A program made the position numbers and the translations under genes. DNA of 64,000 nucleotides from Parcubacteria group bacterium Licking1014_17 (lineage in GTDB: Bacteria > Patescibacteriota > Minisyncoccia > 2-02-FULL-40-12 > IGHO2-01-FULL-4-A): contig VMGJ01000006.1 of assembly GCA_007376485.1 (NCBI GenBank), positions 779-64,778 on the forward strand. Direction: 5' to 3'. This document shows positions 40,417 to 59,669 of this stretch, in pieces. Position 1 is the stretch's first letter. Every line of letters begins with the position of its first letter. The notes below the pieces were generated by a model. The model ran no database searches. It was given only the letters and a program-made list of their open reading frames with translations, and had not been told where the DNA came from.

Positions 40417-41754
40417 ATGGAAAAAGAAAAAAATTTGGAAAAAATCGTCTCATTGTGCAAACGCCGCGGCTTTGTTTTTCCCGGCAGCGAAATATACGGC
40501 GGATTGGCTGGCATTTATGATTATGGGCCGCTAGGCGTGGAGTTGAGTATGAATGTAAAAAACGCTTGGCGTCGGGAGATGTTTCGTCTGCATGAAAATA
40601 TTTTCGAACTGGATAGCAGCATACTTATGCAGAAAAGAGTTTGGCAGGCATCAGGCCATACGTCCGCCGGCTTTACCGATCCTTTGCGGGAATGCAAAAA
40701 ATGCCACCACCGTTTTCGCGCCGACCACCTGACCGAGCAGGGGATTGATAAATGTCCGGATTGCGGCGGCGACCTAACGGAGCCGAAACGATTTAACCTT
40801 CTCGTAGAAACACATTTGGGGCCGGTTCAGGATGACTCTTCTTTGGTGTATCTGCGAGGCGAAACCGCCCAAGGTATTTACGTGAATTACAACAATGTGA
40901 AGATATCTCAAAGTGCTTCACTTCCGTTTGGAATTGGTCAGATTGGCAAAGCCTTCAGAAACGAAATCACTCCCGGGCATTTTATTTACCGAATGCGCGA
41001 GTTTGAACAGATGGAGCAGCAATATTTTATCAAACCATCCGAAGCGGATAAGTATTTTGAACAATGGAAAGAAGAGCGCCTGCACTGGTATTTGGACTTG
41101 GGCATCAAGAAAGAAAATCTGCGTCTCCGCCCGCACGTCACCGGTGAATTGGCCCACTACGCCAAGGCCGCCGTGGATATTGAATATAATTTCCCCTTTG
41201 GCTGGCATGAAATTGAAGGCATTCATAATCGGGGCGATTGGGATCTTTCTCGGCACAGCGAATATTCCGGCCAAGATTTATCGGAAATTGATACTGGAAC
41301 CGGGAAAAGATTTTATCCCTATGTCATTGAAACTTCGGCTGGGGTTGACCGTTTGACATTAGCGTTTATTGTTGATGCCTATGAGGAAGTTATCGGCGGG
41401 CGGACCACCACTACGCAAAGCATAAAAGAAATAGAGGTCGTTTTGAAATTAGACCATCGGCTATCGCCGGTAAAAATCGCCGTTCTGCCTTTATCCAAAA
41501 AAGAGCCGCTGGTGAATATGGCGAAAGATATTGCCAGTAAATTGCGCAAAAACTGGAATGTCCAATATGACGATACTGCCTCTATCGGCAAGCGTTACCG
41601 CCGACAGGATGAAATCGGCACGCCCTTCTGCATATCCGTGGATTTTGAATCCATTGACGACAAAAAAGTTACCGTCCGCGACCGGGATACGATGAAGCAG
41701 GAGAGGATGGAAATAGGGAAATTAGAAATTTATATTGCCGAAAAGCTGAAATGA
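40417..41754 (+). CDS. glyQS: Glycine--tRNA ligase (dimeric class II type)
   Basis: 445 aa. Typical GlyRS N-terminus FVFPGSEIYGGLAGIYDYGPLG and class II motifs. Confidence 0.9.
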   Translation: MEKEKNLEKIVSLCKRRGFVFPGSEIYGGLAGIYDYGPLGVELSMNVKNAWRREMFRLHENIFELDSSILMQKRVWQASGHTSAGFTDPLRECKKCHHRFRADHLTEQGIDKCPDCGGDLTEPKRFNLLVETHLGPVQDDSSLVYLRGETAQGIYVNYNNVKISQSASLPFGIGQIGKAFRNEITPGHFIYRMREFEQMEQQYFIKPSEADKYFEQWKEERLHWYLDLGIKKENLRLRPHVTGELAHYAKAAVDIEYNFPFGWHEIEGIHNRGDWDLSRHSEYSGQDLSEIDTGTGKRFYPYVIETSAGVDRLTLAFIVDAYEEVIGGRTTTTQSIKEIEVVLKLDHRLSPVKIAVLPLSKKEPLVNMAKDIASKLRKNWNVQYDDTASIGKRYRRQDEIGTPFCISVDFESIDDKKVTVRDRDTMKQERMEIGKLEIYIAEKLK

Positions 41755-42830
41755 GCTCATCTCTGGCGCAAAAATTAGAGCGTTTTGCCGAAGGTGAGAA
41801 TATTGACGCGACACGATTGATAACGCGAGAACCCGAGAATGCCCTTGAGGTTTTTCCTGAACTTTTTATTGAAGATCGCCCGATAAGCGAGGTTGAAATA
41901 CTGGAAGCCCTGTATAAGCGTTTATTGAAACACATAGTATCTCTGGATAAAAAAGATTTGGCGTATTTGGCATCCGTTGCCCAGAAACGCACGGGATTTA
42001 TTCTAAAATACAAACCCCATGGAATCAAAGCCACGATACCTCTGGGTTTCTCTCTTTTCTTTTTGGAACCAAATGAAGGGTTTAGCTTTCAGCGCCATAT
42101 TGATATAAAAACGGAAATGTTTAATTTCATTTCGATTTCAGAAGGCGGCTTTGTATATTTTTGTCAAATGGATGAATGGGAAAAAATGTACAGTCCGAAA
42201 CGCTTTTCGGCGTGGCTTGAAGGCGCGTTCAGCCCTTCATTTGAGCAATTTCGTTATATTCCAAAACCCGGAGACGTTATTCGCATAGATAAAACCAATT
42301 TAGTCCACACGGCTATCGGCTGTGTTTTGGAAGAATACTCCAATATTTCGACAGATATGGTGGATCGTCTGCACGATCAGAATAAAGGTAAAAAAATTCC
42401 GCCGAAGTTCAATCGTCGGTATTTTTCGCAAAAAATGGATGGTATTTGTTATCCGGAAAAAAATCATTTAATTGAATACAAGAAAGGTAAATTTATTACT
42501 AGTTCTTTGGAATGGGCCCAAAATGACGGTATTTTCATGATGCCGCTGATGGAGACCCCTACCTATAAAGCAGAACGAGTATCTTTGCCGGCAAACAGTA
42601 TTTGGCGGTTAAATACAGGCGGTAATTTTGTTTCAGCTTTTTTGAGCGATGGCGAAGTAAACTGTGAACTAACTAATAGTAACGAAAATCCGGTAGAGAA
42701 ATCTTTTGATTTATCGCGCCACGATGCGTTTCTAAGCCTGCCCGGGTGCGAATGGCAAATTAGAAATCTATCGGCGTCTGACTCCTGTTTATCGGTTTTG
42801 ACGGTCCGGGAAAAATACGCGCTCTTGTAA
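41751..42830 (+). CDS. Hypothetical bicupin-like protein
   Basis: 359 aa. GFSFQRHIDIKTEMFNFISISEGGFVYF cupin-like segment. ATGA overlap with the glyQS stop. Lies within the insert between the duplicated glyS 3' ends. Confidence 0.45.
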   Translation: MSSSLAQKLERFAEGENIDATRLITREPENALEVFPELFIEDRPISEVEILEALYKRLLKHIVSLDKKDLAYLASVAQKRTGFILKYKPHGIKATIPLGFSLFFLEPNEGFSFQRHIDIKTEMFNFISISEGGFVYFCQMDEWEKMYSPKRFSAWLEGAFSPSFEQFRYIPKPGDVIRIDKTNLVHTAIGCVLEEYSNISTDMVDRLHDQNKGKKIPPKFNRRYFSQKMDGICYPEKNHLIEYKKGKFITSSLEWAQNDGIFMMPLMETPTYKAERVSLPANSIWRLNTGGNFVSAFLSDGEVNCELTNSNENPVEKSFDLSRHDAFLSLPGCEWQIRNLSASDSCLSVLTVREKYALL

Positions 42831-42833
42831 AAA

Positions 42834-43334
42834 ATGAATGAATACGAAAAACCCGAACAAGAAGACGAGGGTTTTGTAAAAAATGAACTCGAGAAATTAA
42901 GAGCAATAAACGATCGTGAATGTGAGTCATTAGCGACGTTTTTGCAGTCTCATATTGATGAAATATATAGATTACTTATTGAAAGAAACAAAGGATCTGC
43001 GGATTTTGAAGGTTTATGCGAAGTTGCCGCGGAGGAACTCCATAAAAGATTAAAAGCCGCCGGTTATGACAGTAAGATGGTTGAAGGAGATCTGGTGGTA
43101 GGCGAGAAGGATTCTTTATCTCATATGATTAATATGGTCAAATTCCCAAACCACTGGGTATTGATTGATCTAACCATCAGGCAATTGCCTTGGTATAAAA
43201 ACAAGAGCTGGCTTCTTGAGGCGTTGCCTCCCGACAACGCAGAAATAAAGAAATTTCTGTATGACCGATATAACTGGTGGCTGGGTCCGAATCATGATTA
43301 TAAAAGGGAGCCATTTGTTAACTGCAAGTCTTGA
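42834..43334 (+). CDS. Small transglutaminase-like (Cys-His-Asp) protein
   Basis: 166 aa. GLCEVAAEELHKRLKAAGY ... HMINMVKFPNHWVLIDLT. Confidence 0.4.
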   Translation: MNEYEKPEQEDEGFVKNELEKLRAINDRECESLATFLQSHIDEIYRLLIERNKGSADFEGLCEVAAEELHKRLKAAGYDSKMVEGDLVVGEKDSLSHMINMVKFPNHWVLIDLTIRQLPWYKNKSWLLEALPPDNAEIKKFLYDRYNWWLGPNHDYKREPFVNCKS

Positions 43335-43443
43335 ATCTCTTGACGACAAAAAAGTCACCGTCCGCGGCCGGGACACAATGAAGCAGGAGAGGGTGGAAAT
43401 AAAAGAATTGGCAGTCTATTTTAGGAAAATACTTGATATATAA
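43333..43443 (+). pseudogene. Displaced duplicate of the glyQS 3' end
   Basis: The 70-nt core at 43333..43402 is about 90% identical to 41647..41716. It encodes ESLDDKKVTVRGRDTMKQERVEI versus the GlyRS C-terminus ESIDDKKVTVRDRDTMKQERMEI. Confidence 0.7.
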
Positions 43444-43621
43444 ACCGTTTTGATTTAATCTGGGAAAGGAAAGCTTTTGATATTCGGCAAATATTACAGT
43501 TCAATTTCGGCGAACATTAGTGCGTAGTAAAGAACGGCGCACGAACTCCGAAGATGACGATTAGATCGTTCGAAAATCGCGTTTCCGTTTGCACGGAGAC
43601 GCGATTATTGTTATCCAGCAA

Positions 43622-43662
43622 ACCGCATCCTCGCCGATTGGCGCGAAGATGCGGTTTTTTTG
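43622..43662 (+). terminator. Rho-independent terminator (accgcatc...gatgcggt plus T7)
   Basis: Hairpin followed by ttttttt, downstream of the plus-strand block. Confidence 0.5.
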
Positions 43663-43700
43663 TATTTAACTTAATTGGCATGTTTCGTGCTTTACAAAGA

Positions 43701-44348
43701 TCAGTTGCCAATTCCAACTTTACAAATTATCGAATCCACCAATTTTTCTTTTGACGACTGGGTTAGTTTTTTTCTCTTGAATAATTTCTCGATCATTAAG
43801 TGGATTAATTCGTGCGCGATAGTGTAATCGGAAAAAGTTATGTCGGATTTCACATCGGGGTTCGCGCGAACATATATTTGGTTGCCCCGCCCAAAGCTTC
43901 CTCCGCTACCGTAAAATGTAATGTAGCAAACATAGGACTCCACAGTTTTAACGTCGGGGATTTTAGTGATTTTTTGAAAAAATCCTCTTTCTGTTTTTTG
44001 CCACTTTTCGCGCAAGATATTCAAAACCGATTTGTATTTACTGAGCGAATAAATAGAATTAAATTCGCGTAAAAATAGAGCGCGATCGCCGTCATTAAGT
44101 AGGTTTATATAACCATAATTAACACTATTTCCCAAGGATTTACTTGTCAGTTTTTTTAATTTCGATTCCAATTGCTTGGAAAACTTCGGTAATATCAATT
44201 CTGACGACCACTTCTTTAGAAATGACATTTTGCAATAAGTCCATAATACCTCCTCGATTTCTTTCTCTTTTGAGATACGGAACTGAACCTTATTTTTTTT
44301 GATGAATTTAGGCAAACAGGAAACAAACCTTACTAAAGTTATTGACAT
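43701..44348 (-). CDS. HExxH putative zinc metallopeptidase (paralog 1 of 3)
   Basis: 215 aa. ITFYGSGGSFGRGNQIYVRANPD...TIAHELIHL. Paralogous to 46933..47469 and 49601..50479. Confidence 0.55.
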   Translation of the reverse strand: MSITLVRFVSCLPKFIKKNKVQFRISKEKEIEEVLWTYCKMSFLKKWSSELILPKFSKQLESKLKKLTSKSLGNSVNYGYINLLNDGDRALFLREFNSIYSLSKYKSVLNILREKWQKTERGFFQKITKIPDVKTVESYVCYITFYGSGGSFGRGNQIYVRANPDVKSDITFSDYTIAHELIHLMIEKLFKRKKLTQSSKEKLVDSIICKVGIGN

Positions 44349-44436
44349 TAGCAGGATTTAATATATTCTAATTTCAGATTAACTGTCCATTAACAATCTG
44401 TCAATTACCCGATTAGGGGACGCGGGGAGTTGTCAA

Positions 44437-44910
44437 ATGGATGAAAAAAACATACTTCGACTCAAGTTGCCATGGCTGTGGGGCACGGACCTGCTTTGTA
44501 CCGCAGGGTACGGACCTGATAGCGGAAGTCCTTATCATGATGATAAGCATAATGCCTTCTACGCGCTTGACTTTGACAAGCCGTGGAGGGGAAATATGAT
44601 GCCGGTTGTGCCGATACTGGCTGTGGAAAAGGGCAATATCGTAACAATTGAGACCAATCCCGAGCATCCTTTTGGATGCCACGTAGTTATTAACCACGGA
44701 GGGGGGTATAAAAGCCTATACGCTCATCTAATGGGAATGCCTGATATACCAGATTTGGTGCGGCAGGGTCAATTGTTGGGCTATATGGGCGAAACGGGAC
44801 ATGCCCAGGGGCCACATCTACACTTCCAACTTTTCTTTAGAAACTTGTGCAGAGAGAAAATCAAACGAGCAATGCCGGCCCGGGTCCACATTCTCGGAGT
44901 TGTTACGTAA
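44437..44910 (+). CDS. M23-family peptidase domain protein (no signal peptide)
   Basis: 157 aa. YHDDKHNAFYALDF (HxxxD) and GETGHAQGPHLHFQL (HxH). Confidence 0.65.
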   Translation: MDEKNILRLKLPWLWGTDLLCTAGYGPDSGSPYHDDKHNAFYALDFDKPWRGNMMPVVPILAVEKGNIVTIETNPEHPFGCHVVINHGGGYKSLYAHLMGMPDIPDLVRQGQLLGYMGETGHAQGPHLHFQLFFRNLCREKIKRAMPARVHILGVVT

Positions 44911-45000
44911 AAAGGTCGAATCTGAAAGGAGAACGCAAGAAGAAAAACGGGAAACCGATTTGAAGAATCTTATTGGGATATTATTTAAATAGGAGAAGAC

Positions 45001-45348
45001 ATGGATACTCTTGAGGAAAAAAAGAATCGATTATGCCAAATCGCTACAGAAGCATTGGAAGATGTGATTAGAGACGGCTTATTGAAAGAAGAAGATAGGG
45101 AAAGCGTAGTAAATGCGATAGGGCACGTTTTGGGAGCATATAACGACCTGAAACAGGAGAAGGATTTTAATAAGCTCTCAAATAGGCTCATTGACGAATT
45201 CGAAAAAGATAAAATAGTTGGGTTGATTTGTATCTTAGAACTTTCCGAGTTTAATAGCAAAGTTGAAATTGAGTTCTGTAAGACCCTGAAAAAACACCGT
45301 GATTTGATACGCAAGGCCATAGAAGCCGATAGCCGCGCTGACAAGTAG
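45001..45348 (+). CDS. Hypothetical helical protein
   Basis: 115-aa ORF, followed by terminator 45378..45399. Confidence 0.4.
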   Translation: MDTLEEKKNRLCQIATEALEDVIRDGLLKEEDRESVVNAIGHVLGAYNDLKQEKDFNKLSNRLIDEFEKDKIVGLICILELSEFNSKVEIEFCKTLKKHRDLIRKAIEADSRADK

Positions 45349-45377
45349 GGGATAGCCGTTTATTTGGGTCTTTCACC

Positions 45378-45399
45378 AGCCGGCTCTGCCGGCTTTTTG
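45378..45399 (+). terminator. Intrinsic terminator agccggc-tct-gccggc plus T-run (the same module as 46565..46587)
   Basis: Identical stem to the terminator after 46204..46530. Confidence 0.55.
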
Positions 45400-45566
45400 T
45401 TGGGGCAAGCTCGTCAGAAAACGCCAAATGTGTGTGCACATTACCCGAGATGTGGATCTCGAAGTAAATATTACCTGTGTTATATTTGAAGCGATAACTG
45501 ATTTGATTATTGTGAACAATCTTATATTGTTTCTAATCCGGAGTTATGTTAGTACTATAGATAATT

Positions 45567-46190
45567 ATGAGTAAAGAAGGTTTTTGGGGAAAATTTGAAG
45601 AAAAGTGTCGCCAGAAGACGGAGGAGTTGCGCAGTAAACGTCTGAAGATGAAGGAAGAAAGGGAAAAAAGATTTGCCGAAAGAGGAGAAAAGCCGGGTTT
45701 AATCGGGTCTTGGTTTGAAATGATGGACACGGCAATTAAATTAAATGATTTTGTGGAAAATAACAGAGGGGAGATAAATGATGCGTTTAGCAGAGCCAAG
45801 GAAACAATAAAAGCGCCGGGATCATTGGACCCCAGAGAGAGGGGAGGAAATTTTAAATTAGCCGCAAAGGGATTAGCTGTTGATTTAGTCGGAGTGGTGG
45901 GAAATTATGAAAGCAGAGTGAGGGAGCGGCAGTTTAAAGAGGAGAGTAGGATTTTGAATAAAATTATAGAAATAAAGGCCGAAAAAGAAAAAATAGAGCA
46001 ATTGGATAATTTGGGGGAGACTATCAAACAAAGACAGCAAGAGGTAGTTGATGATATCAGCAGTTCGGGAAGGTCGATCCCCGATCAAGATGTTACAGAT
46101 AAACTTAGCGAGAAAATCGCGGCAAAACTTGAAAATGCCGACGAAAAGACGAAGAGGGAATTGCTCAAGCTAATTGGATCTTTACCTTAA
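45567..46190 (+). CDS. Hypothetical coiled-coil protein
   Basis: 207 aa, Glu/Lys-rich. Confidence 0.45.
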   Translation: MSKEGFWGKFEEKCRQKTEELRSKRLKMKEEREKRFAERGEKPGLIGSWFEMMDTAIKLNDFVENNRGEINDAFSRAKETIKAPGSLDPRERGGNFKLAAKGLAVDLVGVVGNYESRVRERQFKEESRILNKIIEIKAEKEKIEQLDNLGETIKQRQQEVVDDISSSGRSIPDQDVTDKLSEKIAAKLENADEKTKRELLKLIGSLP

Positions 46191-46203
46191 CGAGGAGGAC
46201 ATT

Positions 46204-46530
46204 ATGAGCGAAGAAAATATTGAGGCAAAAGTTGGGGAACTGAAAGCAAGAATCATTGCCGCGGCAAAACGGCCCGAGCTTGAGCTCGGTGAAAAATATG
46301 GGCAGGAATTGGCCGATAGTATGGAGAAGATACTTAATCTTCTGGATGAACGCGGGCGGAAAGAGCCGACTGTTGATTGGCTTTTGGGTGAGTTTAGAAA
46401 AGAAGAAATAACGGGGCTTTGGCATGTTTCAAATATGACGCTATACATGAAAGCGTTTAAACCTCTTATCATTGGACAAATTCTTGAATGGCTTGAGGAA
46501 ATCAAGGAAGAGGAGAGGAAGAAGAAATAA
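46204..46530 (+). CDS. Hypothetical protein
   Basis: Track ORF 46174..46530. The likely start is the ATG at 46204, after GAGGAGG. Confidence 0.45.
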   Translation: MSEENIEAKVGELKARIIAAAKRPELELGEKYGQELADSMEKILNLLDERGRKEPTVDWLLGEFRKEEITGLWHVSNMTLYMKAFKPLIIGQILEWLEEIKEEERKKK

Positions 46531-46564
46531 GTTTTTTTACTTCACTTTTTGTTCTTCTTTTACC

Positions 46565-46587
46565 AGCCGGCAATGCCGGCTTTTTGT
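46565..46587 (+). terminator. Intrinsic terminator agccggc-aat-gccggc plus T-run
   Basis: Repeated terminator module. See 45378..45399. Confidence 0.55.
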
Positions 46588-46604
46588 TGGGGGGTTGCAT
46601 AGAA

Positions 46605-46667
46605 AGAGTGCTAAATGTGGTGGACGCATACAGGGACTTGACTAAACTCCTATTATTAATGTATTTT
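46605..46667 (+). promoter_or_regulatory. Conserved upstream box plus promoter TTGACT-N18-TATTTT for precursor A
   Basis: Box agagtgctaaatgtggtggacgcatacagg, 46605..46634. A box sequence almost identical to this one occurs at 51910..51941, immediately before the cassette copy at 51945. Confidence 0.45.
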
Positions 46668-46688
46668 TTGAGCAGGAGGTTAAACGCC

Positions 46689-46871
46689 ATGCCACAAGAA
46701 TTGTATGAATGGGTGTCTAACCTTGCCGGTGCCGGAATGTTAGCCGATAGCATACCGGCTGGCACTGGCCCAGCGCAAATGGGGCCGGGCAGTCATTGCG
46801 ACTGCGTTTGCGCGGAATGCGACAATGGCCGTGGGAGCGGCCAGTGCAACTGCGGCCCTAGGGATTGTTGA
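46689..46871 (+). CDS. Candidate RiPP precursor peptide A (60 aa; core HCDCVCAECDNGRGSGQCNCGPRDC)
   Basis: Internal ATG within track ORF 46584..46871, preceded by AGGAGG. Seven Cys in the C-terminal 25 residues. Upstream of the HExxH peptidase and radical-SAM/SPASM genes. Confidence 0.5.
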   Translation: MPQELYEWVSNLAGAGMLADSIPAGTGPAQMGPGSHCDCVCAECDNGRGSGQCNCGPRDC

Positions 46872-46884
46872 CTCCCGCAATTTC

Positions 46885-46918
46885 GTAGCTGCCGGTCTCT
46901 TGGGGGACCGGCAGCTAC
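46885..46918 (+). other. Perfect 13-bp stem hairpin (gtagctgccggtc / gaccggcagctac, 8-nt loop) with no U-tract
   Basis: Sits between the precursor A stop and the start of the HExxH gene (46933). Confidence 0.5.
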
Positions 46919-46932
46919 ACCCATTTCAATAA

Positions 46933-47469
46933 ATGAAAAATATTTCGGTAATAATATCATTTAAACCAATACTCAAGCATTTATTAGAGGTGGTGGTTAA
47001 AAGTCTTGAAGCCGGCAATTATAAAAAATGGGGGCTGAACCCGATTTTACCGCCTCGGCTAAGTGATAATGAAGATTACGGAGTGGCTGCTGAAAGATTT
47101 TGGAATGAATCGGGCTGGTCCGATAGAGTTCAACCTCTCGTGCCCAAAATCAATGACTGGTGGAATAAATTTGGCGCTAAATTTACCGAGTCGTTATCTG
47201 CCGATTTAAAAGTTATAGAACCGGAAAAATATTATATAATACTTACTCCTTTCGGTCCCGGCGGCAGTTATAACACGTCTCAGTCGGCGATTTATGTCAG
47301 AATCACTGATCCAAATGATAATCTGTGGTGGCAGAGAGTTATTGTGCATGAAATCGCGCATTTAGTTAGTGTTAAGCAAGAAAATAAAGACCATGCGCGA
47401 AATGAGGATAGAATAAATAAAATTGTGCGTGAAAAACTTGAAGCTATGGGTATGACTGAATTGTTATAG
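46933..47469 (+). CDS. HExxH putative zinc metallopeptidase (paralog 2)
   Basis: 178 aa. ILTPFGPGGSYNTSQSAIYVRITDP...VIVHEIAHL. Confidence 0.55.
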   Translation: MKNISVIISFKPILKHLLEVVVKSLEAGNYKKWGLNPILPPRLSDNEDYGVAAERFWNESGWSDRVQPLVPKINDWWNKFGAKFTESLSADLKVIEPEKYYIILTPFGPGGSYNTSQSAIYVRITDPNDNLWWQRVIVHEIAHLVSVKQENKDHARNEDRINKIVREKLEAMGMTELL

Positions 47470-47510
47470 CAAATTTTTGTCCTTTTTAAATTGAATATTG
47501 GAGGATTTCG

Positions 47511-48569
47511 ATGGAACAGTATATTTGCCGTCCTCGTGTGATGTGGCTGTCTATTGTTGATTACTGTAACAATAGGTGCCTATGGTGCTATGAACAGTGT
47601 AACGAAGTTCTAGGCCGAAGCATGAGCCTGGATTTGGTGAAAAGAATTTGTAACGCTATGCGATCCGTGGGGGTCAAAAAGTGCATAGTGATAGGCGGGG
47701 AACCCACCCTTCACCCGAATTTTTTTGAAGTGCTTTCAGAGATTAAGGAATGTGGATTCACGATTTCTCTTGTCACGAACGGGCGTCTTATCAGTAAACA
47801 CGAGATAGCCGAAAAATTGTCGCAAACCAGGCCTGATTTTCTGACCATTTCGATTCATGGGTGGTCGCCTGAATCCTATTGCAGGCTGACAAAATCAAAA
47901 AATGGTTTTTCTGAGGTAGCCGAAGGAATGACTCTCCTAAGAAAGCACGGCGTTAAATTTGAGGTGAATATCACCCTCAGTAAATTAACCGCTGGTTTAA
48001 CGGAAGAAATCCTTTCTTTTCTGGAAGCCAACAATATTAAGCACGCCGGATTTAATCTTGCGTCACCTTCGGTATCGGCCCAGAAAACCGTTGCTGAATT
48101 TGTCCCTACGATGCAGGAATTAGCGAGCCAAGCCGTATCCGTTTTCAAGGGCTGCTTGAGTCGGGGAATCAGGCCGTCATTCTTGCTGACCCTCCCTTTC
48201 TGCCTCTTTGGCGATGAGGAATTGTCAGAATTCTTCAAAGCCAGAGCTGTTATATCGGGATGTCAGCTACTATCGGGTTCTGGGATTGTTTTCCAAGCCG
48301 ACGGGTCTATATCCCTTTGCAACCATCTACTGGATTTCAAAATTGCCAATCCTCAACAGACAAGAGAATTGCTTGCTTCGGAAGGCAACTTTCTTGAATT
48401 CTGGAATGCGGAGAAATTGTGTGAAATAAGAAAACAAGCGAATTGTTTCAGGTCTCCTGTTTGCTCCAAGTGCAGTCAATGGGGCATTTGCGGTGCTGGT
48501 TGCATGGTAAGGTGGGCGCATCATAGCCTTTCCGAAGTAGAATTCAGAGAGGTAAATATTAACATCTAG
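47511..48569 (+). CDS. Radical SAM enzyme with C-terminal SPASM-type Cys cluster (RiPP maturase candidate 1)
   Basis: 352 aa. CNNRCLWC (Cx3Cx2C). C-terminal CNHL...CEIRKQANCFRSPVCSKCSQWGICGAGC. Confidence 0.8.
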   Translation: MEQYICRPRVMWLSIVDYCNNRCLWCYEQCNEVLGRSMSLDLVKRICNAMRSVGVKKCIVIGGEPTLHPNFFEVLSEIKECGFTISLVTNGRLISKHEIAEKLSQTRPDFLTISIHGWSPESYCRLTKSKNGFSEVAEGMTLLRKHGVKFEVNITLSKLTAGLTEEILSFLEANNIKHAGFNLASPSVSAQKTVAEFVPTMQELASQAVSVFKGCLSRGIRPSFLLTLPFCLFGDEELSEFFKARAVISGCQLLSGSGIVFQADGSISLCNHLLDFKIANPQQTRELLASEGNFLEFWNAEKLCEIRKQANCFRSPVCSKCSQWGICGAGCMVRWAHHSLSEVEFREVNINI

Positions 48570-48582
48570 GTCTACTCCGTAT

Positions 48583-48616
48583 GCAGATGGTGATTGTATG
48601 CCATCTGCTTTTATTT
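48583..48616 (+). terminator. Intrinsic terminator gcagatgg...ccatctgc plus ttttattt
   Basis: Directly after the radical SAM gene. Confidence 0.55.
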
Positions 48617-48625
48617 AAGAGGCTA

Positions 48626-48654
48626 TTGACAAATACTTTGGCTTGACTTATAAA
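48626..48654 (+). promoter_or_regulatory. Sigma70 consensus promoter cassette, copy 1 (TTGACA-N17-TATAAA)
   Basis: ctattgacaaatactttggcttgacttataaagga. Near-identical copies at 49339..49367 and 51945..51973. Confidence 0.6.
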
Positions 48655-48739
48655 GGAAGTATCAGTGTTGTCAGCTCTTTTGTGCTCTTCAACAATCGAA
48701 ACCGAGGCTAGGGTTTCTAGCCTGAAAGTGAGGTATGAA

Positions 48740-48865
48740 ATGAAAAAATTTCGTCGTGTCGCTCGCGGCAAGCCCTTTTTACCTATATCCGTAAACGAAT
48801 CTCAGTTTGAAAATTCACAGGCAAGAATGTTCTTGCCTGGTTTTTTTAAATTAGATTTTTACTAA
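48740..48865 (+). CDS. Small peptide, 41 aa (MKKFRRVARGKPFLPISVNESQFENSQARMFLPGFFKLDFY)
   Basis: Internal ATG of track ORF 48665..48865, after GTGAGGT. Driven by cassette copy 1. No Cys. Confidence 0.35.
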   Translation: MKKFRRVARGKPFLPISVNESQFENSQARMFLPGFFKLDFY

Positions 48866-48866
48866 T

Positions 48867-49244
48867 TTGGATGAACAAATTAAATTAACTCTTGAGTATA
48901 TTCAAAAATTGACTAAGGGTTGGTACAAATTCAGCAAAGCCACGGAGGCCTATAAAACATCTTTATTTGAATGTATTGCGCACAAGAAAACTGGTTGCAG
49001 CATGAAAGCAAGGTTTGCTCAACTGCTTTTGACTTTTCTTGGTTACGAAGTCGAAATAGTGAGAGGATACTATAAATCTCCTGAGAGATGGACTTTGCAT
49101 GCCTGGGTAAAGGTCAACGGCAAGGAGTACGACCCGACCAGGAAGAATTTTCAAATAACAAGAGACAAACACTCGCGAACAAATCCCGATCCTCACCTCA
49201 CTGATTGGGAACAGGTTTTCGAGAAAATGGAAGGGGAGAATTAA
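48867..49244 (+). CDS. Small transglutaminase-like Cys-His-Asp protein (putative cysteine peptidase)
   Basis: 125 aa. TGCSMKARFAQLLLTFLGYEVEIVRGYY...LHAWVKVNGKEYDPT. Confidence 0.5.
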   Translation: MDEQIKLTLEYIQKLTKGWYKFSKATEAYKTSLFECIAHKKTGCSMKARFAQLLLTFLGYEVEIVRGYYKSPERWTLHAWVKVNGKEYDPTRKNFQITRDKHSRTNPDPHLTDWEQVFEKMEGEN

Positions 49245-49338
49245 CCCCCAACTGAAACTCCATAGGCCGTCAGAATGTGGCATATACATACATTTTAACC
49301 CCCAAATGTCGCTAAGCCGTTGAACCATTACGTTACTC

Positions 49339-49367
49339 TTGACAAATACTTTAGCTTGACCTATAAA
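49339..49367 (+). promoter_or_regulatory. Sigma70 consensus promoter cassette, copy 2
   Basis: cttgacaaatactttagcttgacctataaaggagatagttgtt. Confidence 0.6.
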
Positions 49368-49410
49368 GGAGATAGTTGTTTTAAATCTGCGGAAAGGGGG
49401 TGAGGTAATA

Positions 49411-49548
49411 ATGCCCGAAGACCCGGGAACTCTTTCGCTTTTCATTGGTCCCGAGGACGACCAGGTGCCGTCCAAAATGAGTTGTGATTTTGATGTTGAC
49501 TGTTATGACTGCGACTATAACTGCGAGGAGTGCAACAACAGCGATTAA
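49411..49548 (+). CDS. Candidate RiPP precursor peptide B (45 aa; core SCDFDVDCYDCDYNCEECNNSD)
   Basis: Missing from the track because it is under 60 aa. Strong SD AAAGGGGGTGAGG 8 nt before the ATG. 5 Cys and 8 Asp/Glu in the last 21 residues. Followed by a hairpin (49569..49601). Confidence 0.55.
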   Translation: MPEDPGTLSLFIGPEDDQVPSKMSCDFDVDCYDCDYNCEECNNSD

Positions 49549-49600
49549 TAGCTCGTCAGTCGCCCGCTCAAGGCGACTCCGCAAGGAGCCGCCTTGAATT

Positions 49601-50479
49601 TTACCGAATTATTATAGATTTTCTATATTTTGAAAGTAGTTCTGTGTTACTAAAAATCTTGTTTCCGTGTTTTTTCCAAAGCGACATTTTTTCGGAAAGC
49701 TGCCCGTCTATTTTGAAGGCAGAACCTACAAGTTCTTCAATAAAATTTAAAAATGGCAATTTTTGTTCCAGCAAGTTCGCCAGTTGCTTCTCCACGTAGT
49801 CCTTGAAAAGCACAGGGCTATTGCCATTAGTTTTTATAAACAACTCTCTTATTTCCGGGTTACCCACTTCTCTAACGCTGAGGATTTCAGAAAGCCCTTG
49901 TTGATTAACAATAGCGGTAGCTACTAATTCTTTAAGTAAATAAACAGCATCTTCACTGATTATAATTCCTGTCCGTTTTTTAATTTCATCCAGATACCCC
50001 CAAAAAATTATGTGACTGATTTCGTGTATCGCCACATTAAGCAACCTTTTTTCAATGGTCTTCGCTGACTTTAATTCGCCGAGAATAGAATAAAAAAATA
50101 TTTTACCCCTGAACGGCGAAAACGGCAAAATGGTAAAAATTGCCTCATATTTGGCATCTTCCGGCCACTTATAATCCATAATTTTTGATAGTGCCGCAAA
50201 TGCATTGATGCCCCTTTCTTCGAGATGCCGCAAATTTGATTTCCTGATTTTTTCAATCGTATCGGCGTTATCTTTATAAAAATCGGACACATATCCGCTG
50301 ATTCTTTGCCGGAAATCAGTACCATTAGATAACTCGGCCAGCTTGGGATGGGCTTTAAAAATTGAAAACTTTGCCTGGACAAAGTAGGGGTGATTAACAA
50401 AACTCCAAAACAAGTTTGCATCTTCCCGCGGGTCTATTTTTATTGTTATTTTTGGGAGCTTAATTTGCTTTGTTACCAT
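49601..50479 (-). CDS. HExxH putative zinc metallopeptidase (paralog 3)
   Basis: 292 aa. ILPFSPFRGKIFFYSILGELKS...VAIHEISHI. Confidence 0.55.
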   Translation of the reverse strand: MVTKQIKLPKITIKIDPREDANLFWSFVNHPYFVQAKFSIFKAHPKLAELSNGTDFRQRISGYVSDFYKDNADTIEKIRKSNLRHLEERGINAFAALSKIMDYKWPEDAKYEAIFTILPFSPFRGKIFFYSILGELKSAKTIEKRLLNVAIHEISHIIFWGYLDEIKKRTGIIISEDAVYLLKELVATAIVNQQGLSEILSVREVGNPEIRELFIKTNGNSPVLFKDYVEKQLANLLEQKLPFLNFIEELVGSAFKIDGQLSEKMSLWKKHGNKIFSNTELLSKYRKSIIIR

Positions 50480-50548
50480 ACTTTGATTTTTTTTAGGATT
50501 TATTGTAGAATAACATAAGCTACTTTGAAAAGCAAAAGGAGAGAAACC

Positions 50549-51862
50549 ATGTATAGGAGACTGAAATCGCCATTAATTGTTCAGATTGAGTTGACCGAGG
50601 CATGTATTAATAAGTGCCAACATTGCTACAATCCCCGACGATTAGAAGGTAATCACAGGCAAAGTTTTCCGGAAGATAGAGCCAAACTCGCCGTGGACAT
50701 CTTGGCCAAGGAGGAAGTTTTCCATGTCGTTTTGACCGGAGGCGAGCCGTTGTTAAATCGCGGATGTCTTTTCCGGCTTGCCAAAGAAATTTCTGCGGCC
50801 GGGATGACTTTCGGACTTAACTCCACTCTCTTTGGGTTTTCTCAAAAAGACGCAATAAGTCTGAAAAAATTGGGCATTCTTAATATCCTAGCAACCCTAT
50901 TGGGATCAACCAAAGAAAAGCATGATGCTCTGACCATGAACTCTGAATCCTTTACAAAGACCATTGAAGGGTTGGGTATCGCCTTGGAGGCAGGCATACT
51001 AGTTGGTGTGAATATGGTTGTCACAAACTACAATATCGCAGACATAAGAGACACCGCCAAGCTGGTTAAGACATTGGGAATCCGGTCTTTCTATGCGACA
51101 AAAGCTGCTTGTCCAAGTGATCAAAGAGAATTCAAAGATGCGATACTGGGCAAGGATCATTTTAGAAATTATCTGGAAGAGCTAGACTTGATTGGCCGGG
51201 AGGAGGGGCTTAAATGCGGTTTTCTGGAAGCTTATCCGCTTTGCGGCATGAAGAACTTGGGGAAATACGCCTACTTTCTCGGCCGTCGCTGCCTAGCCGG
51301 TATAACAAGCATGACCATAGCCGCTGATGGCAATATCAGGCCGTGTTCGCACTCTGACATCACGTACGGCAATATTTTCGTTGATGGCGGCATAGGTAAG
51401 GCATGGAGCAAAATGAGTGAGTGGCCGGATGGTCAATTATTGCCTGCCGATTGCAAAAAATGTCCGTTGCTAAACCGCTGCGGAGGCGGTTGCAGGATGG
51501 ATGCTAAAATCGCCGGTGGGTCAATCGACGCCATGGATCCGTTCACTTCACTGCCGGATGTTGATTATGTATTCGAACAACTTAAATCCGCCATTAAAGA
51601 TGGAGAAAGGCCACCACTGAACTTGCCGGACAAGATTAAACTGTGTCGCAACGCGAGAATTCGTTCTGAACCATTTAGCGGTGCGGTTTTCCCCCGAGGA
51701 AAACTTGGTACACTTCTGAATTCGGAAGGTATGCGTGTGTTTATGCAATTAGGGAGGGAAGTGCGTGTAACCAAAGAGCTTGTGCAAAACGCTGATTCCA
51801 AAGAAAAAACCGAGGAGTTTCTAAAAAAGCTTCTGTCTAAATCTATCATTGAACCCGCATAG
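50549..51862 (+). CDS. Radical SAM enzyme with SPASM-type C-terminal Cys cluster (RiPP maturase candidate 2)
   Basis: Track ORF 50525..51862 starts on TTG. The likely ATG is at 50549, after AAAGGAGAG. CINKCQHC (Cx3Cx2C). C-terminal CSHSD...CKKCPLLNRCGGGCRMD. Confidence 0.8.
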   Translation: MYRRLKSPLIVQIELTEACINKCQHCYNPRRLEGNHRQSFPEDRAKLAVDILAKEEVFHVVLTGGEPLLNRGCLFRLAKEISAAGMTFGLNSTLFGFSQKDAISLKKLGILNILATLLGSTKEKHDALTMNSESFTKTIEGLGIALEAGILVGVNMVVTNYNIADIRDTAKLVKTLGIRSFYATKAACPSDQREFKDAILGKDHFRNYLEELDLIGREEGLKCGFLEAYPLCGMKNLGKYAYFLGRRCLAGITSMTIAADGNIRPCSHSDITYGNIFVDGGIGKAWSKMSEWPDGQLLPADCKKCPLLNRCGGGCRMDAKIAGGSIDAMDPFTSLPDVDYVFEQLKSAIKDGERPPLNLPDKIKLCRNARIRSEPFSGAVFPRGKLGTLLNSEGMRVFMQLGREVRVTKELVQNADSKEKTEEFLKKLLSKSIIEPA

Positions 51863-51881
51863 CTAAAAAGTTTGGAGCTAC

Positions 51882-51907
51882 AGCCACCAGAGAATGGTGG
51901 CTTTTTG
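51882..51907 (+). terminator. Intrinsic terminator agccacca-gagaa-tggtggct plus T-run
   Basis: Directly after radical SAM gene 2. Confidence 0.55.
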
Positions 51908-51909
51908 TT

Positions 51910-51973
51910 AGAGTGCCAAATGTGGTGGGGACGCATACAGGCTATTGACAAATACTTTGGCTTGACCTATAAA
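51910..51973 (+). promoter_or_regulatory. Conserved upstream box plus sigma70 consensus promoter cassette, copy 3
   Basis: Box agagtgccaaatgtggtggggacgcatacagg, 51910..51941. TTGACA 51945..51950. TATAAA 51968..51973. Confidence 0.6.
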
Positions 51974-52058
51974 GGAGATAGTTGTTCTTTAGGTGCTTTT
52001 TTGGCTCTTTAACTCAAAGGTTTCATTTTCCGGCTATGCCGGCGAAAGGAGGAAGGAA

Positions 52059-52946
52059 ATGAAGTTTTTACCGATTTTTGGGACAAAGGCGGCTTTCGTC
52101 GCCCTCATGGTGGTGCTTTGTCTTTTTACCATCACTGGCTGCGACAGAAACAGCCCCACCAAGCCCGAGCCGTCACCGACCCCAACCCCAGAACCGCAAT
52201 TTACCCCCACCCCTACCCCCGTATTTACTCCGACTCCAAGACCGACTTCAACTCCAACCGCTACTCCGACCCCGACTCCAACACCCACGCCAACTCTCGT
52301 GAATGACGCAGAATGTGTTAGGGTAAAAGCTAATTCCCCTGTTGAGGTGGGGGCGGTTTTTACCGCCACGGTGAAGATGAGAAACACGGGGACGAAGCCC
52401 TGGTCCGATCCGGATGCGGATGGTAATGACCAAGTCCACAAATTAGTAGGATTAAACCCCCTTACCTGGGGGACAAACGAAGTTAGTCTTCCATCCTCAC
52501 CAATAAACCCCGGGCAGACTGTAGTTTTTCACGTTACTGCCACAGCCCCAACTACAGCAGGGACATACGGCTTCAGCTGGCAAATGATCGAGGGCCAGGA
52601 ATGGTTTGGCGAGCTATGTTCGAAGGACATAATCGTCAATAATCCTGTCCTGATGTCAATTATTGTGACGTACCCTGTGTCTGGGTCTGTGTGGCACCAT
52701 GACGACGAAGTTGTAGTCATGTGGAATAGCACAGGCTATCCTGCCGATTTTGTTTACAGAATTTACGCGAAGTCGGGCAATTGGGAAAAAGACCTGGGCA
52801 TGAGTCAATACGGGCTACTGCTCTTCTACGTTCCGGCCGACTGGCCGCCTGGGGATTGCACGGTGTTTGTGACTGACCCCGCTTTCCCGCCCAAGACAAA
52901 TAACGGCGTGAGCGGGGACGAGAGCGAGGTTTTCCAGGTAGAGTGA
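52059..52946 (+). CDS. Secreted protein / lipoprotein candidate with long Pro/Thr linker
   Basis: ATG at 52059 after AAGGAGGAAGG. Signal peptide ending ITGC. (TP)n linker. Driven by cassette copy 3. Confidence 0.55.
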
Positions 52947-53032
52947 ATGTTTTTTTCAGGGTGGAGTTTTCGTACTCCACCTTTTTTTATATGTGGACAA
53001 ATTGAAATATTTTTTCGTGTTATAGTCGACAT

Positions 53033-54634
53033 ATGGGGAAAATATCTTTTCGCGCAAAAATCACGATGTCGCTAGTTCCCGTAGTCCTATCCGTGATGTT
53101 GTTTTCTATTTTTAATTTTTTCTCAAATAATTCAAACGCGGATGTTGGTTGCGTCACCCTCGCTCATCCTGTCGCGACTAAAATCAGTACACCAGCGCCC
53201 CCAACTGATTGGTTTATTGGGACAGCCGACAATGACACCGGCTCGCCTTGGGATTTAAATCATATTAAAACCCATATACAATGGTGGCCGAATTCCATAC
53301 CGGTAAAAGAGGTAGTGGTGGGGTCGCACATGGACGATGGCAGTGACCGCGCTGGCTGGTTTATTATGGACTGGGGCTGCTTTAAAGATTTACCCGGGAA
53401 TGATGTTGCTGAAAAAGAAAGGGGTGTTAATGAAGGAGGAGAATTCTGGGTAGGAACAAGCACCGCGAATTTAAACGTCTCCCCCACAAACCTATCAGGT
53501 AACCCCAAGGCTACGGGCTGGAAGTATGTAAGCAGCATATCAGAATCCGGTTGTAGCAATTGTCTCAATAGTTTCGATATAGGATTAAATAACGGCGCTG
53601 AATACAAATATGTCTATTTTTGGAGCAATGGCAGTCCGTCAGGATGTGTTGGGGGTATTTGTGAGGGCGTATCCGGTTCTAATGTTGAATACATCAATAT
53701 AGTAAATCCGCAGACTGAGACCGCGACTCCCACGCCCACGCCAACCCCTTCTGTTGATATTAAAGCCAACGGTTCGGACAATCCGCCGCAAGTAACATAC
53801 GGCGGGCAAGCGACGTTGACTTGGACTTCCAAGAACGCCACATCCTGCCAAGTTCCTCCGAATTCTCCGGAGGTGGATTGGTCGGGGGATAAGCCACTGA
53901 AGAACACCACCGGCGAGGTGAAGGCCAATCTTACCAATCCGACTTATACATATAAGATTAAATGTTCGGATTCTAAAGGCAATTCGGCCAGCGACTCGGT
54001 TACGGTCAAAATAGCCCTGCCGCCCCTCCTGGTGGATTTGAAAGCCGCGCAAAATGAAAGTTCGTTTGCCGACCCCGTGTCCGGAAGCGTGCCGTTTTTG
54101 GGGATTGATTTGAAAGCTACTGTCAGCAATGTTGCGAGCGGCTCTTTGAGTTATTATTTTTACTGCCAAAACACATTGGGCACCAGCGCGGCGATAAGTT
54201 CAAGCTATAACCCTTATCAAATAAATAATCTTTGCGATTACTGGGACCAAAATGGCGGGACTTATACCGCTAAAGTTCTGGTGAAGCAGGGGAGCAGGAC
54301 CGCCACCGACACGGCGACAATCACCTCGGTAAAAAATAACCTGCCGCAGGTTCTGAATGTGAAAGCTGAATCCGCCAACGGCTGTTTCTTGAGCGGCGGA
54401 CCGACCGAAATTATCAGCTGGACTTACAAAGACATTGATAACGACCCGCAGTCGGGATTCAAGGTGGTCGTCCATAAAGGGACTGCCACCGGTCCCGTAA
54501 TTCAGGATTCCTGTTCAAAAGGCACCTGCGCTCCGGGAAACACTTCCGCTTCCTATACCGTTACCGATTTGGAATGGGGGCAGAATTATTCGGTTGAGGT
54601 TTTCGTCTGGGATAAAAAGATGAATCCCGAATGA
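53033..54634 (+). CDS. Secreted protein with Pro/Thr linker and beta-rich C-terminal domains
   Basis: 533 aa. N-terminal hydrophobic signal. [10 protein letters not shown] linker. Confidence 0.55.
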   Translation: MGKISFRAKITMSLVPVVLSVMLFSIFNFFSNNSNADVGCVTLAHPVATKISTPAPPTDWFIGTADNDTGSPWDLNHIKTHIQWWPNSIPVKEVVVGSHMDDGSDRAGWFIMDWGCFKDLPGNDVAEKERGVNEGGEFWVGTSTANLNVSPTNLSGNPKATGWKYVSSISESGCSNCLNSFDIGLNNGAEYKYVYFWSNGSPSGCVGGICEGVSGSNVEYINIVNPQTETATPTPTPTPSVDIKANGSDNPPQVTYGGQATLTWTSKNATSCQVPPNSPEVDWSGDKPLKNTTGEVKANLTNPTYTYKIKCSDSKGNSASDSVTVKIALPPLLVDLKAAQNESSFADPVSGSVPFLGIDLKATVSNVASGSLSYYFYCQNTLGTSAAISSSYNPYQINNLCDYWDQNGGTYTAKVLVKQGSRTATDTATITSVKNNLPQVLNVKAESANGCFLSGGPTEIISWTYKDIDNDPQSGFKVVVHKGTATGPVIQDSCSKGTCAPGNTSASYTVTDLEWGQNYSVEVFVWDKKMNPE

Positions 54635-54646
54635 GACAGCAATAGT

Positions 54647-54904
54647 ATGTTTTACACGTATGTGCTAAAAAATAAGAATAATCGTTTGTACACTGGATTC
54701 ACTTATGATCTACGGAAACGCTTCAAGGAGCACAATGACAAAAAGTCAGAATATACAAAGCATCGTGGCCCCTATGAATTGATATACTATGAGGCGTGTC
54801 TTAATGAAAATGATGCTCGCCAAAGAGAAAAATATCTTAAATCTGGGACGGGTAAACGTTATCTCAAAGATAGATTGAAGCGTTTCCTGTCTCATACGGG
54901 ATGA
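54647..54904 (+). CDS. GIY-YIG nuclease-domain small protein
   Basis: 85 aa. FYTYVL...LYTGFTYDLRKRFKEHN matches the GIY-YIG motif. Confidence 0.7.
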   Translation: MFYTYVLKNKNNRLYTGFTYDLRKRFKEHNDKKSEYTKHRGPYELIYYEACLNENDARQREKYLKSGTGKRYLKDRLKRFLSHTG

Positions 54905-54924
54905 ACCCCTAAAGGCGCAAAGAA

Positions 54925-55851: not shown

Positions 55852-56022
55852 GGAACTCACGCCGTTTTAAGCGGGCGAGCCCCCTCGCTACGCGCAAACC
55901 CCCAGCGAGGGTTCGCGCTGCCTTGTGACCTCGCTCGTCCCCCCGCAGAACCTGCAGGGGGACACCATGCCCGCTCGGTCACAAAGGCCGCTTGAGGGCC
56001 TGCCCGCTTTACCATGATGAGC
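55852..56022. repeat. GC-rich 171-bp insert flanked by 33-bp direct repeats (55819..55851 and 56023..56055)
   Basis: Repeats cctccgattttcaaagaagtSaggccaatgtRa, 31/33 identical. The insert is far more GC-rich than its surroundings and contains compound hairpins. Confidence 0.6.
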
Positions 56023-56041
56023 CCTCCGATTTTCAAAGAAG

Positions 56042-56560: not shown

Positions 56561-56575
56561 ATTTGATTGTTTGTT

Positions 56576-57238: not shown

Positions 57239-57327
57239 TATTTTGTAATTATAACATATCTTGAAATTATTTCAGGATTATTGTACCATTCCATATAGTT
57301 TTGTTCTTTGTTGCGGAGGGAAATATT

Positions 57328-57657: not shown

Positions 57658-57782
57658 CGCAAGCACAAGTGCATCTCTAGAAGCCCCAAATCCTATTGGG
57701 GCTGTTTTTTAAACAGGTTGAGTTTTATGATTTATTTTGACCTGCTTTGCTACGCCAAAACTTTCCTAATTTAAAGCGGGAT

Positions 57783-57916: not shown

Positions 57917-57950
57917 GTTTTGCGGCCACGAGGGGCGATGTTCTTAAGCT

Positions 57951-58256: not shown

Positions 58257-58374
58257 AACCTGATTTTAGCAGATCGGACCTGCAAGTCAAAAAAGCAATA
58301 ATGTTTGCCGCCTAGCACGATTGCCAACGCGGCGTTCCTCGTGTAAAACTTAATATAGGCGTAATTTTATTTTC

Positions 58375-59661: not shown

Positions 59662-59669
59662 AATAAATC

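Follow-up and report, generated by a model that had tools for sequence, protein, structure and literature searches.

A displaced second copy of the glyS gene end in a Parcubacteria genome: a candidate scar of one-sided, homology-anchored recombination with foreign DNA

We analysed a stretch of 64,000 nt from the genome of Parcubacteria group bacterium Licking1014_17 (contig VMGJ01000006.1, from groundwater of Licking County; hereafter the window), in which the 3' end of glyS, the gene for a single-chain glycyl-tRNA synthetase (GlyRS), occurs twice, with two genes between the copies. From comparisons of this locus with its relatives, we consider it moderately probable that the repeat was left as a scar by recombination in which foreign DNA was anchored by homology on one side, rather than being the footprint of an integrating element. 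The downstream copy is most likely a pseudogene piece and not the att site of a live element.

The glyS gene (40417..41754, + strand) encodes a protein of 445 residues with Pfam matches to tRNA-synt_2b and HGTP_anticodon; it looks intact and functional, and its product is 73-78% identical to the nearest GlyRS proteins of Patescibacteria. Copy 1 of the repeat (41645..41754, +; 110 nt) is the functional tail of the gene, which ends in FESIDDKKVTVRDRDTMKQERMEIGKLEIYIAEKLK before the stop codon and which may have arrived with the insert. Copy 2 (43331..43443, +; 113 nt) encodes a second tail, ESLDDKKVTVRGRDTMKQERVEIKELAVYFRKILDI, also followed by a stop codon, has no GlyRS body upstream, carries an aspartate-to-glycine change in the RDRD motif, and is here called the relic. 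The two copies are spaced 1686 nt apart; positions 41645-41736 and 43331-43422 align without gaps over 92 nt at 83% identity, and the GlyRS frame is open in both down to the stop (TGA at 41752-41754 and TAA at 43441-43443). When the window was searched with the GlyRS C-terminus by tblastn and with a hidden Markov model (HMM) of the GlyRS C-terminus, copy 2 was matched with E values of 8e-12 and 2e-13, respectively, which places the repeat far beyond chance. The original prediction of a glyS 3' end duplicated in the same frame around a two-gene insert was thus correct. The identity of about 90% that came with it applies to the core at 41647-41716 (7 mismatches in 70 nt), but not to the whole 92 nt. 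Counted by codons, the copies are 86% identical over the first 72 nt and 55% identical over the last 33 nt. The arrangement is not an artefact of a single assembly, since a second public assembly (L081, ENA contig k139_501687) shows it with junctions identical to those of the window; the proteins encoded from argS through a 215-residue open reading frame (ORF) are all 100% identical between the two.

Two ORFs nearly fill the interval between the copies. The first (41751..42830, +; CEN90_650 of Licking1014_17) encodes a cupin-family protein of 359 residues, and its ATG overlaps the TGA of glyS in the sequence ATGA. The second, ins2 (42834..43334, +), encodes a small enzyme-like protein of 166 residues, and its TGA falls within the first bases of copy 2. 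The 359-residue protein has 416 homologues, many annotated by their sources as cupin or PF07883 proteins or as mannose-6-phosphate-isomerase-like; identity to it is 35-45% for proteins of Acidobacteria and others, and 45-49% for proteins from small metagenomic contigs that look like those of the candidate phyla radiation (CPR). The bicupin-like ORF of the original prediction holds at the level of the family, some members of which match PF07883, but a Pfam search with the window protein itself gave no match. For ins2, a word-based search returned the protein itself as the sole match, and 43 remote homologues emerged from an exhaustive HMMER search, with lengths of 74-177 residues and mostly of 135-170. 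In the alignment of this family C62 is nearly invariant, and H97 and D112 are invariant. The conserved Cys, His and Asp lend weak support to the transglutaminase-like ORF that had been proposed, but the matches to arylamine N-acetyltransferase (NAT) and Transglut_core were all below threshold; a transglutaminase-like fold is plausible. An AlphaFold model computed without an alignment had a mean predicted local distance difference test score of 55.7, too poor for a fold search. The possibility that ins2 was truncated at its C-terminus by the junction, which would be a sign of a random break, was considered and rejected, because the C-terminal tails of the family vary and that of the window protein is among the longest.

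The cupin gene and ins2 seem to be conserved as a pair and to have moved together, as the two are also adjacent, with a 4-nt overlap, in L187, L186 and, as a fragment, L188. No homologue of the cupin gene lies beside glyS in the 160 related loci. Our best guess for the role of the pair is a step in the modification of a small molecule or peptide. Two hairpins (43575-43606 and 43620-43657) lie at 43575..43663 on the + strand, 3' of the relic, as found by an inverted-repeat search, a terminator scan and inspection of the sequence; the second, with a run of T behind it, probably terminates the glyS transcription unit. The cargo genes appear to be promoterless, and may be transcribed together with glyS up to the hairpin that follows the relic.

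The GlyRS C-terminal HMM was run on six-frame translations of 161 loci, and each locus was searched by tblastn with its own GlyRS tail. Among about 158 loci of Patescibacteria and related bacteria, four independent duplications of the glyS tail were found: in the window (and L081), in L004, in L140 and in L026/L118. The cargo measures 1.6 kb in the window, 2.6 kb in L004 and 0.5 kb in L140, and is missing from L026; the cargoes are mutually unrelated, always co-oriented and tightly packed. In L004, whose GlyRS is 73% identical to that of the window, the copies (2940-3089 and 5737-5946) are 84% identical and enclose five co-oriented ORFs, the first two of which read by eye as a toxin-antitoxin-like pair; the gene for an M16 peptidase follows the relic, with one ORF of 105 residues in between. 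The L004 relic is broken at 5772-5866 by about 95 nt of GC-rich sequence that stands in place of 35 nt of coding sequence; this piece showed no similarity to a GC-rich insert found 3' of a PKD gene of the window (described below) and no Rfam match. In L140 (GlyRS 56% identical to that of the window) the copies lie at 1857-1952 and 2459-2554, and the cargo is a single ORF for a zinc-ribbon protein of 145 residues. The first 54 nt of the two copies are 100% identical and the next 42 nt 64% identical, the switch falling exactly after the RDRDTM codons. L140 also has a 31-nt motif, ACAAAAAAGCGCCTGACCCCTTTTTT, twice in tandem upstream of glyS (569-630) and once, at 71% identity, just after the relic (2566-2596). 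In L026/L118 the match to a second copy was weak and proved real on inspection: a clean insertion of 96 nt lies directly after the RDRDTM codons. It consists of a new tail, QQDRIDIFEIRSYFDEKFGR and its stop codon, and 27 further bases, GGTATTGATATGTCCGCCTTGGGTGGA, with no cargo, and after it the old tail continues in frame as EQERVAIDELKAWVDEKFARQ to its own stop. Weak second-copy matches given by the self-tblastn in L002, L019, L073, L093/L094 and L128 were unconfirmed by the HMM search, and we treated them as chance.

The four events have three distinct relic boundaries. Those of the window and L140 lie within about 2-4 nt of each other at the homologous GlyRS position; that of L004 lies farther upstream, at RRQDEIGTP, and that of L026 after DTM. 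The boundaries and the switches in identity coincide with the margins of the two DNA blocks that are most conserved in the 3' region of the gene, RRQDEIGTP and VRDRDTMKQE, and column conservation falls from about 0.77 to about 0.60 just past KQER.

Which copy is native can be seen directly in L026. An insert-free close relative, L029/L126, has a GlyRS body 94.6% identical to that of L026; its functional tail, beginning with EQERVAIEDLKAWVDSKF, matches the relic of L026, EQERVAIDELKAWVDEKF, and not the functional tail of L026, and the downstream DNA is homologous too. In L026, then, the relic is the native end and the working tail is a foreign newcomer. The comparison with an insert-free relative that the original prediction had proposed thus found an answer in a parallel case, where the relic proved to be the original end. 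Moreover, since the functional tail of L026 is unlike the tail of the relic and L029, the replacement tail of L026 is not a local copy. By analogy, the relic of the window would be native and copy 1 foreign. The relic of the window has a glycine in place of an aspartate of RDRD that related GlyRS tails conserve (D, rarely E or N), which supports the relic as the displaced end, and the ATGA shared by the stop of copy 1 and the start of the cargo is consistent with a donor operon in which this tail and the cargo adjoined each other. Similarity to relatives could not decide which tail of the window is native, because both resemble genuine GlyRS tails found elsewhere (copy 2 those of P0280 and P0250, copy 1 those of P0194 and P0173). 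The two tails look like versions from different lineages and not like a local copy in decay.

The divergence of the copies also speaks to their history. The ratio of nonsynonymous to synonymous divergence (dN/dS, Nei-Gojobori) between copies is 0.34 in the window, 0.09 in L004 and 0.39 in L140; dS comes to 0.35-0.96 when the repeats are taken in full and to about 1.5 for their tail segments, and there is no frameshift or internal stop in any relic. The low dN/dS values, together with the open frames of the relics, suggest that the tails diverged mainly as working GlyRS ends. For the window taken alone, the value of 0.34 is statistically inseparable from the value of about 0.55 that we would roughly expect if one copy were constrained and the other neutral. 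In L140 the synonymous contrast between core and tail is sharp (0/11.7 vs 5.7/8.7). The earlier proposal that the insert brought its own copy of the gene end and displaced the original downstream is therefore supported, by the analogy with L026 and L029 and by these sequence statistics. As for the downstream copy being a conserved gene, no related genome conserves the relic as a gene.

In the mechanism that we favour, DNA from another member of the Patescibacteria, bearing the 3' end of the donor glyS and the operon genes downstream of it (the cupin gene and that for the Cys-His-Asp enzyme), would pair with the resident gene through the conserved 3' coding blocks. Pairing would end where the tails diverge, and the non-homologous remainder, that is, the foreign tail and the cargo, would return to the chromosome at the end of homology or slightly 5' of it, either through an illegitimate join or by a switch of template. 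The product would read, in order, resident glyS body, foreign tail, cargo, and resident tail as a dead relic. The allele before insertion would be a glyS ending in ESLDDKKVTVRDRDTMKQERVEIKELAVYFRKILDI and a stop codon, joined directly to the sequence from 43444, and the donor would have a glyS tail ending in MEIGKLEIYIAEKLK and a stop codon that shares ATGA with the start of the cupin-ins2 pair. The left junction lies in homology, with the glyS frame running on into copy 1 and identity changing at the edges of the conserved blocks; at the junctions of cargo and relic there is no extended homology. Homology-anchored recombination would account for the lack of a recombinase, the range of cargo sizes down to zero, the co-orientation and tight packing of the cargo, and the breakpoints. 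Homology-facilitated illegitimate recombination (HFIR), in natural transformation and conjugation, is a precedent for such a pathway (PMC3240628), and transformation can generate duplications (PMC3784515). The window contains recO, recG and polA, which have no bearing on the route of DNA uptake. The recombination pathway, the donor arrangement and the co-transcription of the cargo are what we infer from the order and similarity of the sequences.

Several observations weigh against this reading. The near coincidence of the relic boundaries in the window and L140 is more than random illegitimate joining predicts, and it keeps both site-specific integration and a family of cassettes alive as explanations. 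The resident block is duplicated in the window and in L140, which means that the join lay upstream of the crossover and that a second template or a template switch is needed; this is not the simplest form of the pathway. No donor genome with the order glyS-cupin-ins2 was found. In L162 a cupin homologue does lie 3' of a glyS tail, with the gene for a class I synthetase in between, so that donor-like neighbourhoods exist, without this exact order. The nearest GlyRS proteins, among genome contigs, metagenome contigs and a search of 5.8 billion proteins, are 71-78% identical to that of the window, and with no relative above 78% the window itself offers no direct view of an empty site or of the relic as the native end. 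Finally, the synonymous contrast between core and tail in the window is not significant (5/14.7 vs 4.2/6.5).

The setting of the insert bears on how it is to be classified. In 71 related loci glyS is followed by a co-oriented gene for an M16 peptidase, which in 39 cases begins less than 120 nt away, and a homologue of the AI-2E transporter, where detected, mostly comes next after M16. In the window both are present by Pfam at 58375..60713 (+; M16 at 58375..59661, AI-2E transporter at 59670..60713), and the gap from glyS to M16, which contains no integrase, measures 16,624 nt (41751..58374). Since M16 stands directly behind glyS in most of the 71 related loci, the flagged unit of 1.6 kb is the glyS-proximal end (the first 1.7 kb) of a variable region of 16.6 kb, and not a self-contained insert. 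At the glyS stop GC content drops to about 0.40, from about 0.47 before it, and it remains at about 0.40-0.43 until about 51 kb, the flanks being at 0.45-0.50. The ORFs of the variable region have no homologue in 160 related glyS neighbourhoods, bar three marginal matches: a piece of 96 residues of ORF 53033..54634 (in L083), a small GIY-YIG ORF (54647..54904) and a PKD ORF (54925..55851; in two loci). The content includes an M23 peptidase, two radical SAM enzymes, Ig/PKD surface proteins, the small GIY-YIG protein, a NUDIX protein, a methyltransferase and several ORFs with no match. Neither the GlyRS C-terminal HMM nor a repeat search found a further glyS relic in the 16.6-kb region, so the window holds one relic, and a repeat that would mark the right edge of the region was looked for and not found. 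In about 20 further loci 0.3-3 kb of co-oriented, ordinary genes lie between glyS and M16, with no relic; those identified by eye encode an aquaporin-like channel, an Xaa-Pro peptidase, a pyrophosphatase and methyltransferases. The junction is thus generally plastic. Upstream of glyS, the gene order argS-ileS-recO-DUF11 protein-glyS is partly common to other Parcubacteria.

An unlikely alternative, though one with real points in its favour, is that the locus is the remnant of an integrase-mediated element (an island, an integrative and mobilizable element (IME) or a prophage) that entered at the 3' end of glyS with a replacement end in its attP, and whose integrase was lost or acted in trans, as in a cis-mobilizable element. 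Imperfect direct repeats around foreign DNA of lower GC content would be expected of such an element, and so would the replacement tail, by the logic of dusA-specific integrases that restore the end of their target gene (PMC4482086). The nearly coinciding relic boundaries of the window and L140, and the identical 54-nt core followed by divergence in L140, also fit. A further hint comes from L176 (IMGVR_UViG_3300008755_000136), where a glyS truncated beside terminase and portal genes suggests that phages may use glyS in other lineages. The recombinase itself, however, is not in evidence. A Pfam scan of the two cargo ORFs and of the ORFs scanned within 41751-58374 found no integrase, transposase or excisionase, no integrase or transposase was seen in the inserts of L004, L140 and L026, the ORFs of which were inspected by eye only, and none of the roughly 20 other glyS-M16 inserts carries an integrase. 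The original prediction had suggested a cognate integrase elsewhere on the contig; the only tyrosine recombinase of the window (26621..27535, +; 304 residues of Xer-type architecture, with Phage_integrase and Phage_int_SAM_1 matches) lies 14 kb upstream, is unlinked to the insert and has homologues in related loci. Independent loss of an integrase in every case is improbable. Moreover, all four inserts are very small (0.1-2.6 kb), densely coding and co-oriented, and show no non-coding scar; that of L026 amounts to a replacement tail without cargo, and there are three different relic boundaries among four cases. The suggestion of an attL/attR pair left by an integrative element is thus not supported, in view of this lack of a recombinase, the variable boundaries, the cargo-free case and the finding that the unit is part of a 16.6-kb stretch.

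Candidates for a phage attP with a GlyRS tail were also followed up and rejected: the matches in a phage database were full-length bacterial glyS genes in unverified 'phage' records. The matches in IMG/VR were likewise mostly full-length glyS, and only that of L176 was truncated beside phage genes. L176 comes from an unrelated lineage; its truncated glyS (5752-6165; the C-terminal 149 residues) abuts terminase and portal genes, as read by eye, and may represent a phage attachment site inside glyS or else a chimeric contig.

We think it decidedly unlikely that the conserved end block of glyS is a reusable docking site, independent of any recombinase, by which units of tail plus cargo spread between lineages through uptake and homologous recombination. 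Were this so, successive arrivals would build variable regions like that of 16.6 kb, and the locus would be an integron-like site of gene capture without an integrase. We are more doubtful again of a family of integrase-less cassettes in which the GlyRS tail block serves as a portable site, the units circularising and being re-inserted by RecA or a host recombinase, which would make the glyS-M16 junction resemble an integron. The compact, promoterless and co-oriented cargo, the recurrence of unrelated cargo at one gene end across lineages and the two nearly coinciding boundaries are consistent with such a family; a unit once formed would be flanked on both sides by glyS homology and could move by ordinary homologous recombination, and the 16.6-kb region may consist of stacked acquisitions. 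Yet the window has one relic and no array, and most inserts at the junction have no relic at all. On neither strand do the repeat copies form an attC-like structure (z from -0.75 to +1.26 against shuffles), the ends of the cargoes share no motif, Pfam scans of the window found no IntI, and the boundaries of L004 and L026 differ from the other two.

An event in situ, without foreign glyS DNA, is very improbable. The gene end would have been duplicated locally, as a long target-site duplication or by tandem duplication and deletion, with neutral decay of the relic thereafter. The cores in the window have a lineage-specific DDKK motif in common and are about 90% identical, that of L140 is 100% identical, and the dN/dS of the window, as noted above, would allow neutral decay. 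The tails, however, are 55-64% identical next to cores of 86-100%, sharply so in the synonymous sites of L140, and no relic has acquired a frameshift or stop despite its dS. The functional tail of L026 is unlike the tail common to its relic and L029. The ends of the insert carry no inverted repeats, a transposase is likewise missing, and the repeat is 110 nt with divergent tails; we know of no transposon target duplications of 110 nt. Lastly, we set aside as wholly improbable that the repeat is an assembly artefact, or that the downstream copy works as a small gene or a regulatory element. The contig does derive from a metagenome-assembled genome, and a 60-residue ORF (43261..43443) spans the relic, but two assemblies have identical junctions, a 92-nt repeat of 83% identity would in our judgement not collapse or chimerise assemblies, the ATG of the ORF has no Shine-Dalgarno sequence, the relic is absent from relatives, and an Rfam scan of the window returned tmRNA and tRNA only, with nothing at the relic.

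The window contains other features of note. Within the variable region, 46584-51862 may be a cluster for a ribosomally synthesised and post-translationally modified peptide: an ORF of 95 residues (46584..46871) with a Cys-rich C-terminus ending in CDCVCAECDNGRGSGQCNCGPRDC is accompanied by a radical SAM gene (47511..48569), a transglutaminase-like ORF (48867..49244) and a radical SAM/SPASM gene (50525..51862). A promoter-like repeat, CTATTGACAAATACTTTGGCTTGACCTATAAAGGAG, with a pair of -35/-10-like elements and then GGAG, stands before genes of the variable region at 48620-48684, 49333-49397 and 51939-52003. A terminator-like hairpin repeat, CCAGCCGGCnnTGCCGGCTTTTTGTT, occurs at 45369-45405 and 46556-46592 (92% identical, 1187 nt apart), with a weaker copy at 51884-51909. 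ORFs 43701-44348 (- strand) and 46933-47469 (+ strand) have HExxH-like motifs, IAHELIHL and VHEIAHL, respectively; one of them has a weak match to the DUF5700 zinc peptidases, and the two are possibly paralogues. There is also a second gene-end duplication in the window, at the PKD gene (54925..55851). The last 33 nt of this gene (encoding PPIFKEVRPM, with TGA as the stop) recur 204 nt downstream, where the stop is TAA, and the repeat (55819-55859 and 56023-56063) is 88% identical over 41 nt. The insert between its copies (55852-56022) is GC-rich, 171 nt long and non-coding, forms a very stable fold (-81 kcal/mol, z = -4.7) and has no Rfam match. Outside the variable region, an intergenic repeat of about 125 nt (84-90% identical) occurs at 6793-6916, 3' of recG, and at 27557-27677, 3' of the Xer-like gene, 20.8 kb apart. 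The IleRS gene (34462-37974) has a His_Phos_1 domain inserted at residues 493-659, in the catalytic domain, and L081 has the same architecture.

The feature is, in our view, a scar that recombination left when genes were gained horizontally at a plastic junction of the operon. It represents a variant of known processes and not a new kind of element. To our knowledge, few mobile elements have been described in Patescibacteria (CPR), which have very small genomes, and how these bacteria gain genes is therefore poorly understood. The locus of the window and its three parallels would illustrate one concrete route, in which foreign operon genes enter directly behind an essential, conserved gene; glyS survives by virtue of the working end that arrives with this DNA. 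The displaced old end is then a datable scar, and such scars can be searched for systematically. As the L026 and L029 loci show the relic to be native and the working tail foreign, scars of this kind reveal the direction of transfer, preserve a record of its mechanism and could map gene flow among uncultivated lineages. For annotation, the point is that the true extent of the variable region is ten times that of the insert that was flagged.

Among known systems, HFIR (PMC3240628) is alike in that it combines a homologous crossover at one end, here within the 3' blocks of glyS, with non-homologous joining at the opposite end, requires no recombinase of the element's own, and gives small, variable inserts. 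It has never been demonstrated in Patescibacteria, and its involvement here is read from sequence. Classical HFIR products usually delete or replace recipient DNA, whereas here the recipient gene end is kept downstream and, in two cases, a short recipient block is duplicated. The islands of dusA-specific integrases resemble the window in that an incoming replacement end keeps the gene intact, the original end is displaced and imperfect direct repeats result (PMC4482086). Those elements carry their own tyrosine integrase beside the att site, are usually at least 5 kb long and use one fixed crossover site. The loci described here, in contrast, have no integrase, inserts of 0.1-2.6 kb, varying boundaries and one case without cargo. 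Other elements that restore their target gene include the integrative and conjugative elements and IMEs of streptococci that sit at the 3' ends of housekeeping genes.

The microcin H47 island of E. coli also has a small cargo between direct repeats and encodes no site-specific recombinase (PMC3191183; PMC5426353). Its repeats serve the excision and integration of a defined island. The repeats of the window, in contrast, are two versions of the coding end of an essential gene, and the unit is known from its sequence. In the mobile ORFs of fungal and chytrid mitochondria (e.g., at atp6 of Allomyces), which enter close to the 3' end of a gene, a foreign in-frame C-terminus is inserted and the resident one is displaced. 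A homing endonuclease drives that event, unlike in the window, where the unit has no nuclease and encodes a cupin and a Cys-His-Asp enzyme. The resulting order is nevertheless the same in both: a gene body, a foreign C-terminal piece, one or more inserted ORFs, and the displaced native C-terminus as a pseudogene fragment.

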